Of a DNA stretch of 4,553 nucleotides, positions 1 through 4,553 are shown piece after piece. A model generated the notes under the pieces. The model ran no database searches. It had not been told where the DNA came from and saw only the letters and a program-made list of their open reading frames with translations. This stretch comes from a virus (Duplodnaviria; Heunggongvirae; Uroviricota; Caudoviricetes): the IMG/VR virus record IMGVR_UViG_2534682256_000015, one strand, 5' to 3'. How positions within the stretch are numbered: the stretch's first letter is position 1; the number at the start of each line of letters is the position of its first letter. The position numbers were made by a program, and so were the translations under genes.

Positions 1-57
1 CGGGGGAAAAACGTGTATTTTTAGTCATCCTGTTTACCTCTTTCTCAGGGAGTTTAG

Positions 58-82
58 TCTCCAGGATTCCCGGGGCGGTTCA
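58..82. repeat. Left copy of a 25-bp imperfect inverted repeat (tctccaggaTTCccggggcggttca); partner at 4473-4497 on the opposite strand
   Basis: Direct comparison of 58-82 with the reverse complement of 4473-4497: 9 identical bp, 3 adjacent mismatches (ttc vs aaa), 13 identical bp. Immediately preceded by an in-frame TAG (55-57) and immediately followed by the start of tfa homology. Confidence 0.8.
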
Positions 83-615
83 ATCTGCTGGCCGGAACTA
101 ATGAATTTATTGGTGAAGGTGACGCATACATTCCGCCTCATACAGGTCTGCCAGCAAACAGTACCGATATTGCACCGCCAGATATTCCGGCTGGCTTCGT
201 GGCTGTTTTCAACAGTAATGAGGCATCGTGGCATCTCGTTGAAGATCATCGGGGTAAAACGGTTTATGACGTGGCTTCCGGCGACGCGTTATTTATTTCT
301 GAACTCGGTCCGTTACCGGAAAATGTTACCTGGTTGTCGCCGGATGGAGAGTGTCAGAAGTGGAACGGCACATCCTGGGCGAAAGATGCAGAAGCAGAAA
401 AACTGTTTCGGGTACGGGAGGCAGAAGAAACAAAAAACAGCCTGATGCAGGTAGCCAGTGAGCATATTGCGCCACTTCAGGATGCCGTAGATTTGGATAT
501 TGCGACGGAGGAAGAGGCATCGTTACTGGCTGCATGGAAGACATATCGGGTATTGTTGAATCGTGTTGATACAACAGTAGCAGCGGATGTTGAGTGGCCA
601 GTCGCCCCACAATAA
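79..615 (+). CDS. tfa: Tail fiber assembly protein, lambda Tfa/TfaE type; 5' end atypical, no ATG/GTG/TTG in frame between the TAG at 55-57 and the GTG at 199
   Basis: Frame 1 is open from 58 to the TAA at 613-615. The translation [46 protein letters not shown]...[26 protein letters not shown] matches, from memory, the lambda/e14 Tfa family including the C-terminal EWPxxP end. The ORF-track start at 199 is an internal GTG; the usual N-terminus (about 15 residues) is missing. Confidence 0.8.
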
Positions 616-655
616 AAAGAAAAAGCCATCGACAGAAATATCGATGGCTTTATGT
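614..655. terminator. Bidirectional rho-independent terminator between convergent tfa and the acetyltransferase gene
   Basis: Perfect 11-bp stem AAAGCCATCGA (622-632) / TCGATGGCTTT (641-651) with an 8-nt loop. On the - strand the hairpin is followed by TTCTTTTT; on the + strand it is preceded by an A-run and follows the tfa stop directly. Confidence 0.65.
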
Positions 656-658
656 ACT

Positions 659-1231
659 CTATTTATACAATACAACACCACTCTTTTTAGTTATATATGT
701 GCAGTTTGATGGTATATCTTTATTTATAAAAGACATTGCACCTATTTTTACATTATCCCCAATTTTACGTGATAATCCAATGATGCAACAATTAGCTCCG
801 ATATCAACGTTACTACCAATTTTTACTCTTGAACTAGGCATATCACCATCTATCTGTCCAATGGTAGTATTCTGTCGTAATACCAGATTTTCACCCGCAT
901 CAACAGCAAAATGAACAACAATTCCAGCATGATGGGGAATTGTCAACCCTTTTCCAATATTTGCGCCCAATCCTATTTCACAACCAAACTTGTTAATTAT
1001 TTTACTGTTTAACTTTTTGGCTGCTTTCTTATGTAATTTATTACCATTAATATACATTTCGTTAGCCAACCGCCACCAGAAAAGGAAATTCCGGTTACGC
1101 TGCTTTTTCTCTCTTAAAAGCCTCCAGATATCCATACGTTTCCGCCGAATTACTTCATGTTTCCAGAAGTTTTTTAAATTAGTAGAGTTTCCAAATAAAA
1201 CAAAGTGAATTGCCATTAAGTAAGATAGCAC
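659..1231 (-). CDS. Hexapeptide-repeat (left-handed beta-helix) acetyltransferase, CysE/WcaB/EpsC serine-acetyltransferase-like; probable sugar/polysaccharide O-acetyltransferase
   Basis: Translation contains FLFWWRLANEMY...FGCEIGLGANIGKGLTIPHHAGIVVH followed by repeated [LIV]G-x4 hexapeptide units (KIGSNVDIGANCCIIG...KIGDNVKIGAMSF). Preferred start is the GTG at 1231-1229, preceded by AAGGAG (1243-1238) with a 6-nt spacer. Alternative in-frame starts are the GTG at 1264 (ORF-track start, no SD) and the ATG at 1216. Stop TAG at 659-661. Confidence 0.8.
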   Translation of the reverse strand: MLSYLMAIHFVLFGNSTNLKNFWKHEVIRRKRMDIWRLLREKKQRNRNFLFWWRLANEMYINGNKLHKKAAKKLNSKIINKFGCEIGLGANIGKGLTIPHHAGIVVHFAVDAGENLVLRQNTTIGQIDGDMPSSRVKIGSNVDIGANCCIIGLSRKIGDNVKIGAMSFINKDIPSNCTYITKKSGVVLYK

Positions 1232-1282
1232 GATAATCTCCTTAATTATTATTTCAGACCACACATGTTATAAGGTTAAGAG

Positions 1283-1311
1283 ATTATAAAATCCTGTTAT
1301 TTGTTATTCAA
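1283..1311 (-). promoter_or_regulatory. Sigma70-like promoter for the acetyltransferase gene: -35 TTGAAT, 17-bp spacer, -10 TATAAT
   Basis: The reverse complement of 1283-1311 reads TTGAAT-aacaaataacaggattt-TATAAT. It lies about 40-50 nt upstream of the SD/GTG at 1243-1229 in AT-rich DNA. Confidence 0.5.
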
Positions 1312-1344
1312 AAACAATTTTCTGAGAAGGACATACAACAGCAA

Positions 1345-1377
1345 GTCGCCAGTCACCTTCATCAGGAAATTGGCGAC
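1345..1377 (-). terminator. Possible weak terminator hairpin downstream of gpU (7-bp stem GTCGCCA/TGGCGAC, 19-nt loop)
   Basis: Inverted repeat 1345-1351 / 1371-1377 just after the gpU stop (1388-1390). The stem is short, the loop long and the T-tract poor. Confidence 0.25.
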
Positions 1378-1387
1378 ATACGTTAAA

Positions 1388-1882
1388 TCAGAGCAGCCCC
1401 TTAACTGAGCTGGCCGCGCTATTAAGGGATGATGTCACCTTATCTTTGAAGCCGGACAGCATATCGCTGAACGATGAGGATTGCAGGCGCTCCCGCAAAT
1501 CCTCATCACAGCGTTCAAGAGTCAGTGAAAATTCTATCTTTTTCGCCTTACCGTAGCGATCAAACTCGGAGCGGGTCGTATTCGTTCCGGTCAGGACATA
1601 CATGCCGTAAATCTGCCCGACGCCATCAATCAAAGGCCAAGGACGTCCTGTATATGCCTGCGTGGTCAACAACGACAGCGACACTTCGCCACCAGTAATC
1701 TCAGGATAAAGAACACCAGAAAGAACGATGCGATCATCACCTGCACCGATATACTGCCAGCTTGCTGAACGGTTAACGCGTTCATTTTTCACATGTCGCC
1801 AGCTTTTGTTTTGCTGTAACTGCTGATGCGGCAACGTGCGCAGCTCAAAAACAAACATGCCGTAGATCATCATCATGGCCAT
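1388..1882 (-). CDS. Phage tail protein, P2 GpU family
   Basis: 164-aa ORF with ATG at 1882 and TGA at 1388-1390. The pattern FVFELRTLPHQ...SWRH...RVNRS...LSGVLYPEITGG...WPLIDGVGQIYGMYVL...KIEFSLTLER matches my recollection of the GpU family. GAGGAG lies just upstream (1888-1893), overlapping the stop of the preceding ORF. Confidence 0.7.
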   Translation of the reverse strand: MAMMMIYGMFVFELRTLPHQQLQQNKSWRHVKNERVNRSASWQYIGAGDDRIVLSGVLYPEITGGEVSLSLLTTQAYTGRPWPLIDGVGQIYGMYVLTGTNTTRSEFDRYGKAKKIEFSLTLERCDEDLRERLQSSSFSDMLSGFKDKVTSSLNSAASSVKGLL

Positions 1883-1888
1883 GACTCC

Positions 1889-2725
1889 TCAATCTTTATC
1901 GTAAAAACTGCCACGCCTGGCACGGGCGCGCCGTTCCATTTCTGCCCTGACCATTTCGCCGACCAGTTTCGCCAGTTCGCGGGGATTCTGCGTAACAACG
2001 TTATGCAGATGAACATGAATTTCACCGCCAAATCCGGAGGCAACAGGCTCCCGGTTACGGGAAGTTGCAGGAACTGATGCCACTGGCGATCGTATGGCCT
2101 CCACCACCGGGCGGGAGCTGGCCGCAACAACAGGGACCAGCGCCGGAGGCAGCGGAGCCGGGACCACGGGTGTGATATTAATTGCGGGGGCAGGCTTACT
2201 GACCTGCGCAATCTTCCGCTCCTGCCACTCCCCACGAACAGCAAGTGCGCGGGGCAGGTTCTTAAAGACAATATCGCCGGGGCCAATGCGTTTTTTTGTC
2301 TCATCAACCAGCTTACCTGTGTTATCAGCAATTTTGCTGAGTCTGCGTAGCGTGCCGGTATTGCTGTCTGTGAGAGGTTTGTTGTCTTTGGGTTTATCAT
2401 CTCCGGTGCCATTGCTATTTCCCGCAGACTTCGGCGGATTGATTTTCGCAATGTCTCCCTGAAACAGAGCAACCTTGTCCTGAAGAATGGCCGCACGTTG
2501 TGCGTCTTCGATTTTCTTGCGCGCCCTTTCCGCTTCATCCGGAAGCACACCGAGTTTTTCAAGTATCCACGCCAGCGTATCCAGCAACATTTTTGCAGGC
2601 GTCAGAACAAGCTGTAACGCACCACCAAGAACGTTACCGAATACCTCGCCAGCACTGGTACATTTATCCAGCGTTTCCTTGCTGGACTCCATCGGTGACA
2701 GCAGCGATTTAAACCAGTTAAACAC
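1889..2725 (-). CDS. Tape measure protein, C-terminal segment (278 codons from the GTG at 2725); probably the continuation of the 2602-4443 ORF after a frameshift
   Basis: Open frame from the TGA at 2756-2758 to the stop at 1889-1891. It overlaps the 3' end of the upstream TMP ORF by 124 nt in a different frame. Contains a Pro/Ala-rich linker (PAPAINITPVVPAPLPPALVPVV). Its stop overlaps the gpU SD, which suggests translational coupling. Confidence 0.6.
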   Translation of the reverse strand: MFNWFKSLLSPMESSKETLDKCTSAGEVFGNVLGGALQLVLTPAKMLLDTLAWILEKLGVLPDEAERARKKIEDAQRAAILQDKVALFQGDIAKINPPKSAGNSNGTGDDKPKDNKPLTDSNTGTLRRLSKIADNTGKLVDETKKRIGPGDIVFKNLPRALAVRGEWQERKIAQVSKPAPAINITPVVPAPLPPALVPVVAASSRPVVEAIRSPVASVPATSRNREPVASGFGGEIHVHLHNVVTQNPRELAKLVGEMVRAEMERRARARRGSFYDKD

Positions 2726-4443
2726 CTGGCTGAACCGCTTCCGATTACGTCAAAAACAGGGCCAAACCGTTCAAAGGTGTCGCGCAACGGGGTCAGCCTT
2801 TCCATAATCCCGCTGAACACCCCGGCAAAGAAAGCCCTGATAGGATCCCAGTATTTCCAGATAAGAACGGCAGCTCCGGCAAGCGCAGCCACGATAAGAC
2901 CAACCGGACTGAACAACGCCCCGATAACGCCTCCCAGTAAAGAAACGGAACCCGTCACCATTCCCCATAGCGCAGGTAACACCCTGACGACATTCATTGA
3001 CCGGGTAAGAATGTCAAAACCAAGACGCAGGGTGGCCAGCTTCCCGTAAAGCACCCCAATAACCAGCGACAACGAGCCAATCGTTGCAGTCATTGCCAGC
3101 AACGCACCGCCTGCTATCAGTAGCTGGCGCGTCAGTACCGGATGGGCCTGCGCCAGCGAGGTGATTTTTTCAAGCACCCGCGTGAGCCACTGCGTGACAG
3201 AACGCAGCGGACCGTCAACCAGATCACTGATGCGAATACGAAGACCTTCCCATGCGCTGTCGAGATTTTTCAGGTCCCCATCAAGATTATCAGCCATTAC
3301 TTTTGCGACGCGATCGGCCTCTCCCCTTGCCCCCTGCAATTCTCTGGTCAGTTTTTGCAGCTCTCCTGAACCAGCCGCCGCAACAAGCGTCTGCAAACCA
3401 ACGAACGCCTCTTCTCCGGCGATGTCCTTGAAGAAGGAGACCTGGTCCACCTGTCCGTATTTTTGTGTCGCCTTATAGAGATCAAGCAGCACATCCTCCA
3501 TCGGGCGCATTTTGCCTCTGGCGTCAGCAACTGACACCCCCAGCTCTTTCAGTGCATCAGCCGCAGCTTTTGGCGGTGATGCAAGGCGGGACAGACTTGC
3601 GCGCATGGCCGTGCCAGCATCGCTTCCGCGAAGACCATTATTGGCAAGCATCCCGGCCATGGCCGCCGCTTCTTCAAGACTGATACCAAGTTTTGCGGCA
3701 ACCGGACCGGTATACTTCATGGTTTCGCCCAGCGCGCGTAAATCAGTATTGGTCCGGGTAAATGCTGCTGTCAGCGTATCGCCCACCCGGTCCATTTGAT
3801 CGGCTGTCAGGTTGAACTGTGTGAGGATATTGGAGCCTATATCAGCCGTCTCGCCGAGTTCGACGCCACCTGCCAGCGCCATATTAAGAACACCGGGCAA
3901 TGCGGCCTGAATGGCCTGCGGAGTAAAACCAGCCATTGCCAGAAAGCTCTGCCCACTGGCGGCATCACTCGCAGTAAACTGTGTTTCAGCAAGTTTTAAC
4001 GCCTGCTCACGCAGCGCCTTAAACTGCGGGCTGTTTTTGTCGATTCGCGTCAGTGCCTGAACGCGGGACATCTCTTTGCCGAACCCGATCGCAGGCTGCA
4101 AAAAACGCCCGGCAGCATAGCCGCCCGCCGCTGCCGCACCAATTGCCAGCGCACCACCTGTTTTCAGTTTTCCCGCGGTTTCCTGCGCGTGCGAATACCG
4201 CTCACGCGCCTGCGTTACACGCGCAAGCGCCTGCCGTTCGCGTTCAAGCTGGTTGTTGTATTGTTCGGTGCGTCTGATGGCCTGCTGAATGGTGTTATCG
4301 CTGCCTGTCAGGGAAATGCCGTGGCGTTTCAGCTCTCCGCCAAGTTCCCTCATTTTCTGAATTTCCCGTGTGCGCGATTCATTCAGGCGTTCAAGCCGGG
4401 TGCTTAACTGCTGCATCAGCTTTTGTTGTTTTTCGCTGAGCAC
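2602..4443 (-). CDS. Phage tail tape measure protein, N-terminal and central part (613 codons, GTG start)
   Basis: Long Ala/Gly/Leu-rich ORF with a coiled-coil-like N-terminus (EKQQKLMQQLSTRLERLNESRTREIQKMRELGGELKR), a central region typical of tape measure proteins, and hydrophobic segments near the end (LLIAGGALLAMTATIGSLSLVIGVLYG...). The last ~35 codons before the stop at 2602 are Cys/Trp/Arg-rich and look out of frame, while the overlapping frame reads as normal protein. Confidence 0.8.
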   Translation of the reverse strand: MLSEKQQKLMQQLSTRLERLNESRTREIQKMRELGGELKRHGISLTGSDNTIQQAIRRTEQYNNQLERERQALARVTQARERYSHAQETAGKLKTGGALAIGAAAAGGYAAGRFLQPAIGFGKEMSRVQALTRIDKNSPQFKALREQALKLAETQFTASDAASGQSFLAMAGFTPQAIQAALPGVLNMALAGGVELGETADIGSNILTQFNLTADQMDRVGDTLTAAFTRTNTDLRALGETMKYTGPVAAKLGISLEEAAAMAGMLANNGLRGSDAGTAMRASLSRLASPPKAAADALKELGVSVADARGKMRPMEDVLLDLYKATQKYGQVDQVSFFKDIAGEEAFVGLQTLVAAAGSGELQKLTRELQGARGEADRVAKVMADNLDGDLKNLDSAWEGLRIRISDLVDGPLRSVTQWLTRVLEKITSLAQAHPVLTRQLLIAGGALLAMTATIGSLSLVIGVLYGKLATLRLGFDILTRSMNVVRVLPALWGMVTGSVSLLGGVIGALFSPVGLIVAALAGAAVLIWKYWDPIRAFFAGVFSGIMERLTPLRDTFERFGPVFDVIGSGSARCLTGLNRCCHRWSPARKRWINVPVLARYSVTFLVVRYSLF

Positions 4444-4465
4444 TGTACCCGTGCGTTGTAACTGA

Positions 4466-4553
4466 TTAAGGGTGAACCGCCCCGGTTTTCCTGGAGAGTG
4501 TTTTATCTGTGAACTCAGGCTGCCAGATCATCGTTTCCGATGGAAGCATAATA
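4466..4553 (-). CDS. 3' end of an upstream ORF that runs off the window (...MIWQPEFTDKTLSRKTGAVHP*); possibly the frameshift-extended tail assembly chaperone (P2 E+E' / lambda G-T analogue)
   Basis: This frame is open from the window edge to the TAA at 4466-4468, 23 nt upstream of the TMP GTG. A second frame, the -1 partner, terminates earlier at the TGA 4528-4530. The gene is partial and only 29 codons are visible. Confidence 0.3.
   Translation of the reverse strand, partial: IMLPSETMIWQPEFTDKTLSRKTGAVHP
4473..4497. repeat. Right copy of the 25-bp imperfect inverted repeat (reads tctccaggaAAAccggggcggttca on the - strand)
   Basis: See feature 58-82. It lies 30 nt upstream of the TMP GTG start and contains a short internal dyad AACCG-GGG-CGGTT that the left copy lacks. 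Confidence 0.8.

Follow-up and report, generated by a model that had tools for sequence, protein, structure and literature searches.

Why is the tail tape measure gene on the minus strand of a 4,553-nt stretch of phage DNA (IMG/VR record IMGVR_UViG_2534682256_000015; hereafter, the window) read in two frames? An earlier reading, made from the sequence alone, had described one tape measure gene split over two reading frames, and this description is borne out, as both frames are present and are colinear with a single intact protein. We conclude with near certainty that window positions 1889-4472 (minus strand) are a frameshifted P2 gpT-type tape measure pseudogene of Sp13/CP-933T, a defective P2-like prophage of Escherichia coli O157:H7; no result speaks against this reading. 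Sp13 is the designation of this prophage in strain Sakai, and CP-933T is its name in strain EDL933. The frameshift itself is already known, with RefSeq marking the gene as "frameshifted" or "pseudogene", and it is an instance of ordinary prophage decay. Here, we describe the position and nature of the lesion, its ancestral state, its distribution among genomes and the defective context in which it lies.

Two reading frames of a single gene

The upstream piece of the tape measure gene (frame A) is a minus-strand ORF at 4443..2602. It had been reported as a 613-codon tape measure ORF ending at 2602, and it is indeed listed as 2602..4443, minus strand, 613 aa. The 5' part of the gene in its original frame occupies 2737..4472 and corresponds to codons 75-654 of the 935-codon orthologue, with a TP901-family core domain inside. 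It is followed at 2602..2736 by an out-of-frame end, which comprises an intact Gly654 codon (2736-2734), a 43-residue tail (SARCLTGLNRCCHRWSPARKRWINVPVLARYSVTFLVVRYSLF) containing 7 Arg, 3 Cys and 2 Trp, and a TGA stop at 2604-2602; the implausible residues of this tail had previously been put at about 35. Frame B, also on the minus strand, is open from 2749. The TGA closing it upstream is found at 2750..2752, not at 2756-2758 as first given, and forms the 5' limit of the interval holding the frame change. Homology in frame B extends from 2734 to 1889, and this 3' part of the gene (1889..2734) supplies, in the shifted frame, codons 655-935 and the stop codon (1891-1889). Translated, frame B gives the C-terminal sequence of the intact 935-aa protein. 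Both frames align colinearly to that one protein, and their DNA is approximately 96% identical to that of the uninterrupted gene (2808 nt) in phage 500465-2. The earlier proposal of one gene of about 850 codons was therefore right in positing a single gene and wrong in its length, with the full gene having 935 codons and the window holding codons 75-935.

Gene family and tail operon

The 5' part of the gene matches PF10145 at 186.6 bits (cut-off 33.2) and TIGR01760 at 283.9 bits (cut-off 28.8). Frame A aligns to residues 98-652 of P2 gpT (NP_046782.1; 34% identity, E = 9e-83) and frame B to residues 659-723 of the same protein (38% identity, E = 2e-14). Thus, P2 gpT, the prototype tail length tape measure protein, is colinear with both frames of the window and has the same TP901-type core domain, although at 815 aa it is only about 35% identical to, and 120 residues shorter than, the 935-codon type of the window. 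Within the Peduoviridae, the window's phage falls in the Gemsvirus/Xuanwuvirus (P88-like) part and not in Peduovirus.

The surrounding genes are arranged as in P2. A gpU-type tail protein gene (PF06995, Phage_P2_GpU; 131.5 bits), the usual downstream neighbour of a tape measure gene, lies at 1388..1882 on the minus strand, giving the P2 order of T then U, and in EDL933 a GpE-family gene is immediately upstream of the tape measure gene. The window and EDL933 together place the gene between the E/E+E' chaperone genes and gpU, in the same way that the P2 T gene follows E/E+E' and precedes U. A single uninterrupted frame for the whole protein is absent from the window, being broken by the frameshift at 2734-2737 and by IS629 at 4472/4473. 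The gene stems from the TP901/P2 gpT family but, as a pseudogene, is not a working member of it.

A one-base loss at codons 654-655

When the window is aligned to intact orthologues, the lesion falls at 2734..2737 on the minus strand, where GCGGGATC (Gly654-Ile655) is replaced by GCGGTTC. One G has been lost from the GGG of codon 654 (2735-2737), and the adjacent position, 2734, carries an A>T substitution. The alignment to phage 500465-2 over window 2560-2900 contains just one gap, of 1 nt (GCGGGATC versus GCGG-TTC), and a -1 frame change is needed to restore reading after the lesion. A 1-nt indel had been predicted somewhere within 2726-2750, and the loss at 2735-2737 falls inside that interval; the accompanying statement that the region is not a homopolymer proved mistaken, since the missing base belongs to a short GGG run. 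The change from GGGATC to GGTTC at codons 654-655 took out one base, and translation would therefore leave the frame after Gly654, continue through 43 nonsense residues and stop at 2604-2602, with the final 281 codons left behind in the second frame.

Comparison with this gene at its locus in strains LSU61, 493/89 and PV15-279, where the allele is intact, shows the lesion to be derived. Over window 4198 to 83 (~4.1 kb), the only differences from the O157:H7 strain PV15-279 are the gap and the neighbouring A/T. In the basal O157 strains LSU61 (WP_000853406.1) and 493/89 (WP_000853407.1), this prophage has, in the corresponding position, an uninterrupted gene of 935 codons, and across the lesion LSU61 shows the identical two differences from the window. 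When the window protein is repaired, it departs from the LSU61 protein in only three places over 861 residues (GS>A at 235-236, C356R and I655F), with the residue numbering of the two offset by 74. The prophage adjoins tRNA-Leu in LSU61, EDL933 and PV15-279; the stretch of 493/89 that was examined ended short of the tRNA, such that among basal strains the tRNA-Leu site is shown for LSU61. The intact orthologues of LSU61, 493/89 and phage 500465-2 (YP_009949284.1; 95.9% DNA identity to the window) come from the prophage type to which the window belongs. Unlike the window gene, however, they are read in one frame of 935 codons, codons 654-655 being GGG ATC, and their prophages retain baseplate, tail fibre and lysis genes.

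Distribution of the two alleles

Window 1-4472 is 100% identical to the chromosomes of EDL933, Sakai-type and many other O157:H7 strains. The mutant 41-mer occurs exactly in 264 of 5,426 complete genomes, Sakai and EDL933 among them, and the lesion is thus reproducible across independent assemblies. The intact version is present in 594 genomes (26 with identical flanks), and the intact allele is also kept by PV15-279 and F3113.

These counts bear directly on whether the true gene is uninterrupted and the missing base an artefact of sequencing or assembly. The base is missing from a short G run (GGG to GG), a context in which some platforms miscount, and the window resembles a short-read contig bounded by IS629 repeats. 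However, 264 complete genomes that were sequenced independently, among them Sakai and a re-sequenced EDL933, share the very same mutant allele, which in practice excludes error. Furthermore, the gap is accompanied by the A>T at 2734, while homopolymer miscalls yield no substitution, and the intact allele of PV15-279, LSU61 and 493/89 demonstrates that sequencing recovers the base where it exists. The 264 identical copies uphold the earlier preference for a real mutation over a sequencing error.

The position of the length change in a G run could also be taken as the mark of a phase-variable switch, in which slipped-strand mispairing toggles the tape measure gene. Yet a tract of two to three bases is too short for contingency-type slippage, there are two alleles only, each fixed in its own strain set, and these alleles also differ by a substitution. 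The prophage, moreover, lacks the remaining genes required to build a working tail, and we accord such a switch next to no probability at all.

The frameshift mutation arose within the O157:H7 lineage, with the basal strains LSU61 and 493/89 keeping the intact gene and typical O157:H7 strains now carrying the mutant allele unchanged. Drift or hitch-hiking probably brought it to fixation, with no selective value of its own, and neither fragment is likely to be functional. Since all mutant copies share 100% identity, they offer no measure of selection acting on the fragments in either direction. In the genomes examined, GGGATC>GGTTC is a clean derived marker that separates typical O157:H7 (264 complete genomes) from LSU61, 493/89, PV15-279 and F3113, and it supplies one dated event for the already documented decay of Sp13/CP-933T. 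It has little consequence beyond correct annotation, in which the two ORFs are one frameshifted tape measure pseudogene, as in RefSeq.

Overlapping genes or programmed frameshifting as unlikely alternatives

The two frames might instead reflect a natural organization, either as overlapping genes for a 610-aa tape measure protein and a separate 278-aa protein or through a programmed -1 frameshift like that of P2 gpE/E+E'. A -1 shift is in the direction needed, and a heptamer of canonical type, T_TTA_AAT (2713-2707), falls within the overlap and in register with the upstream ORF (zero frame); an AGGTG precedes it by 9 nt. The heptamer reads GGT TTA AAT in frame A and lies 21 nt downstream of the lesion. 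This tail operon does have a known programmed -1 frameshift, located in the E/E+E' chaperone genes that precede T. P2 E/E+E' and lambda G/GT resemble the window in operon, in shift direction and in having an X_XXY_YYZ heptamer in register, whereas their conserved site is in a gene upstream of the tape measure gene, outside the window. Unlike those systems, the window split is absent from relatives and is without a stimulatory structure.

In 11 of the 13 phage records covering the gene, as well as in LSU61, 493/89, P2 and the 594 genomes with the GGGAT allele, a single frame runs across the region. Homologues in which a separate gene of ~278 aa follows a ~610-aa tape measure protein, which the sequence-only reading had named as contrary evidence, were not encountered among these relatives; the gene is single, with 935 codons (815 in P2). 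The two-frame state is one mutation away from PV15-279 in 4.1 kb and is therefore recent, not conserved. In the intact gene the heptamer is ordinary coding sequence (NWFKS), and the match to T_TTA_AAT is coincidental because the same sequence encodes WFK there. No stable structure is predicted downstream of the heptamer, where a 94-nt fold of -27 kcal/mol has a z of -1.08 and 27 of 200 shuffles fold equally well, and no Rfam frameshift element was found. Heterogeneous codons, AAU among them, shift poorly in E. coli, where motifs lacking a stimulator rise to only 2-10x a background of 0.055% (PMC4066793); no value for the heptamer T_TTA_AAT was found in the Sharma paper. A natural two-frame organization is, on these grounds, extremely unlikely.

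A shared frameshift hotspot was likewise considered and rejected. The tape measure gene of phage record 520873 (two entries) is split elsewhere, at ~nt 1146, and the window site is not recurrent.

In strains without the IS629 insertion, -1 slippage at T_TTA_AAT, with its SD-like AGGTG 9 nt upstream, might give trace full-length protein with nine altered residues (655-663), or both fragments might have been co-opted by the mobile, packaged Sp13. We consider either outcome most unlikely.

Decay of prophage Sp13/CP-933T

RefSeq labels the gene "phage tail tape measure protein, frameshifted" in EDL933 (EDL933_RS14220), and in Sakai it is "pseudogene ECs_2640" within "prophage Sp13, P2-like phage", which is where the mutant 41-mer matches Sakai exactly. 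ECs_2640 and EDL933_RS14220 are the same gene as that of the window, with the same allele and gene order, but are without the IS629 insertion at codon 74 (4472/4473) present in the window's strain. The EDL933 and Sakai maps contain no head, baseplate, lysis or packaging genes, and gpD of EDL933 is truncated by IS30. Sp13 has been described as being without most morphogenetic genes, with its minor tail function scored as defective (PMC2669165, Table 1). Pseudogenisation in a decaying prophage, one of the explanations originally offered, is supported by the intact orthologues, the 264 mutant genomes and the missing genes of Sp13/CP-933T. Sp13 is still excised, replicated and present in particles (PMC2669165), and thus the prophage as a whole is not inert; its mobility does not need its own tail genes.

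IS629 ends bounding the window

The right end of an IS629/IS1203 copy (terminal inverted repeat) occupies 4473..4553 on the minus strand and interrupts the tape measure gene at codon 74; the IS629 sequence ends ...CCGGGGCGGTTCA at 4473. This segment is a 96-99% match to IS629 copies in Stx phages, one of which is labelled "inverted repeat from right end of IS629". Because the IS629 end fills 4473-4553, only codons 75-935 are in the window, which has no counterpart to the first 220 bases of the LSU61 gene. The IS629/tape measure junction (4472/4473) was found in none of the 5,426 complete genomes. Genomes matching the window in two pieces were considered as carriers of the junction and dismissed, as the window's IS end pairs with IS copies elsewhere (checked in strain 4276). 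Independent IS629/IS1203 disruptions of the tape measure gene are seen in the window, strain 1613 and PV15-279, and the pseudogene keeps gaining hits, such as that at codon 74 in the window.

At the opposite end, positions 1..82 on the minus strand are the left end of another IS629/IS1203 copy, comprising its inverted repeat and the start of orfA (TGAACCGCCCCGGGAATCC...ATGACTAAAAATAC); the tail fibre assembly gene has lost its first 45 nt to this copy. A partial IS3-family/IS1203 element is annotated at this position in EDL933 and Sakai, and the similarity of LSU61 to the window stops at 82.

A single-base deletion splits the tape measure gene

The feature on the minus strand is a frameshift mutation that has become fixed in the tail tape measure pseudogene of the defective P2-like prophage Sp13/CP-933T. 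Two open reading frames are involved, one of 613 codons (4443..2602) and one of 278 codons (2725..1889). The longer frame contains the TP901-family tape measure core domain (PF10145, 186.6 bits) and scores 283.9 bits against TIGR01760, for which the cut-off is 28.8. It occurs as described in the sequence-only reading, although its start is an internal GTG corresponding to Val85 of the 935-residue protein.

The gene of Escherichia phage 500465-2 is intact (2808 nt, 935 codons) and 95.9% identical to the window. Within the 2560-2900 alignment of the two, the sole gap is one base, with the intact gene reading GGAAGCGGGATCAGCC and the window GGAAGC-GGTTCAGCC. One G has been lost from the run at 2735-2737 and is accompanied by an A>T substitution at 2734, such that GGA AGC GGG ATC AGC CAG (G S G I S Q) in the intact gene becomes GGA AGC GGT TCA GCC AGG (G S G S A R) in the window. 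Past the lesion, 43 out-of-frame residues (7 Arg, 3 Cys, 2 Trp) are read before a TGA at 2604-2602. The downstream frame has its upstream limit at a TGA at 2750-2752, and from 2734 it reads FSQVFNWFKSLL... up to the natural stop at 1891-1889. Adding one G produces a single 861-codon reading over all of the tape measure sequence in the window, and this differs from the protein of the basal O157 strain LSU61 only by GS>A (residues 235-236), C356R and I655F. The prototype tape measure protein, P2 gpT (815 aa), also matches both frames colinearly, at residues 98-652 for the upstream one (E = 9e-83) and at residues 659-723 for the downstream one (E = 2e-14). The single gap and this colinearity bear out the proposal of one tape measure gene split by a 1-nt indel.

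The observation and interpretation of the sequence-only reading were thus correct save for small details. The Cys/Trp/Arg-rich tail that it judged implausible is out of frame, and its length had been put at about 35 residues. The TGA opening the second frame had been misplaced at 2756-2758, the gene had been estimated at about 850 codons, and the site had been described as not a homopolymer, whereas the lost G belongs to a short run.

An in-frame 3-nt deletion (Gly-Ser to Ala) was also found near 3990 on the minus strand, at codons 235-236, relative to LSU61 and phage 500465-2. It is common to the window and the O157:H7 strain PV15-279, and because of it the EDL933 pseudogene measures 2804 nt rather than 2807.

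Distribution and ancestry of the mutant allele

An exact 41-mer centred on the lesion was searched against 5,426 complete E. coli genomes and was present in 264. Sequencing error is ruled out by these 264 identical assemblies together with the accompanying substitution, in agreement with the earlier slight preference for a real mutation. All 30 of the mutant-allele matches sampled were either named O157:H7, Sakai included, or had no serotype in the name. One of the 264 matches falls on a plasmid-labelled record, perhaps through misassembly or wrong assignment of the replicon.

The intact counterpart 42-mer (GGGAT) occurs in 594 genomes and has identical flanks in 26, among them O157:H7 PV15-279, F3113, LSU61 and 493/89. 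From 4198 to 83, PV15-279 departs from the window only at the missing G and at 2734 (A/T), and it follows that the alleles are one small event apart (GA>T, or G loss plus A>T). Phase variation at the G tract is implausible, as the tract is only 2-3 bases long and the two alleles, each fixed, are further distinguished by a substitution.

Intact 935-codon genes are found in the same prophage of LSU61 (WP_000853406.1) and 493/89 (WP_000853407.1). This prophage retains baseplate and tail fibre genes in both strains, and in LSU61 it adjoins tRNA-Leu, like that of EDL933. In the stepwise model of O157:H7 emergence, 493/89, which belongs to the sorbitol-fermenting O157:H- clone, and LSU-61 diverge earlier than typical O157:H7. 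This branching order places the mutation, putatively, on the way to the typical O157:H7 lineage.

The lesion is not a programmed frameshift

A natural layout, in which the tape measure gene is followed by a separate gene or read by programmed frameshifting, was considered as a rival to mutation. The upstream frame does contain GGT TTA AAT at 2715-2707, with a T_TTA_AAT heptamer in the -1 slip register and AGGTG 9 nt upstream of it. However, the same sequence codes for NWFKS in the intact gene, and is therefore not a product of selection for slippage. The predicted fold of the 94 nt starting at the heptamer is no more stable than those of shuffled sequences (z = -1.08), and an Rfam search detected no frameshift element. 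In E. coli, heterogeneous codons, AAU among them, shift poorly, and unstimulated motifs reach only 2-10x a background of 0.055% (Sharma et al. 2014, PMC4066793). The operon's conserved programmed -1 frameshift is instead that of E/E+E', which lies upstream of T, beyond the window. Since the tape measure genes of relatives run uninterrupted across the lesion site, both forms of this layout are excluded.

In the 'complete phage' record of Escherichia phage 520873 (NC_049344, 281-3087), the annotation divides the tape measure gene into two CDSs ~1.1 kb after its start, and the match is 1 nt shorter than those of sister phages. The split there is either a sequencing error or a frameshift of independent origin at a different site, and the window lesion is therefore not a recurrent one.

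Decay of the source prophage

Many E. coli O157:H7 chromosomes match positions 1-4472 at 100% identity. One of them is EDL933, in which the RefSeq label of the gene, 'phage tail tape measure protein, frameshifted', spans 2804 nt equivalent to window 1889-4692. The Sakai annotation calls the region 'prophage Sp13, P2-like phage' and lists the tape measure gene as pseudogene ECs_2640. The EDL933 and Sakai prophage maps comprise replication, partition, sheath, tube, E/E', T and U genes, with gpD interrupted by IS30; head, baseplate, lysis and packaging genes are absent from both maps. These annotations and the remnant gene content support the suggested pseudogenisation in a decaying prophage. The minor tail function of Sp13 was rated defective by Asadulghani et al. 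(PMC2669165). The frameshift represents ordinary prophage decay, already annotated in RefSeq and in agreement with the published account of the prophage, and as something already known it is of low interest.

The right end of an IS629/IS1203 element (right inverted repeat, 4473-4553) is inserted in tape measure codon 74, and for this reason the window lacks the gene's first 220 nt. The 4472/4473 junction was found in none of the 5,426 complete E. coli genomes, and this IS629 insertion is therefore private to the source strain. A second copy, in the same orientation, contributes its left end (left inverted repeat and orfA start) at 82-1. Judging from these two ~81-nt IS ends, the window probably represents an entire short-read contig flanked by collapsed IS copies. 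Independent IS1203 events affect the tape measure gene of two other O157 strains: 1613 (3389-7505 of that locus) has an insertion 399 nt from the 3' end, and PV15-279 (9290-12868) has a truncation in which 2313 nt are left and the allele is unshifted. Repeated IS1203 disruption is the pattern that an unconstrained pseudogene would show.

Neighboring genes

Downstream of the tape measure gene, gpU is encoded by a 164-codon ORF (1882..1388, minus strand; PF06995). A 201-codon hexapeptide acetyltransferase ORF (1264..659, minus strand) is present as cargo, with gpU on one side and the tail fibre assembly gene on the other; LSU61 and 493/89 also carry it in their intact prophages. PGAP labels it 'serine O-acetyltransferase', although no NCBIfam cut-off is approached (best score 76 bits vs 150). 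The tail fibre assembly protein is represented on the plus strand by a 138-codon ORF (199..615) within a gene remnant at 85-615, the IS629 copy at 1-82 having taken the first 45 nt (15 codons) of a gene that is 579 nt in LSU61. An Rfam match to RF02111 'IS009' (380-578, plus strand; 191.4 bits, gathering score 117) lies entirely within this gene.
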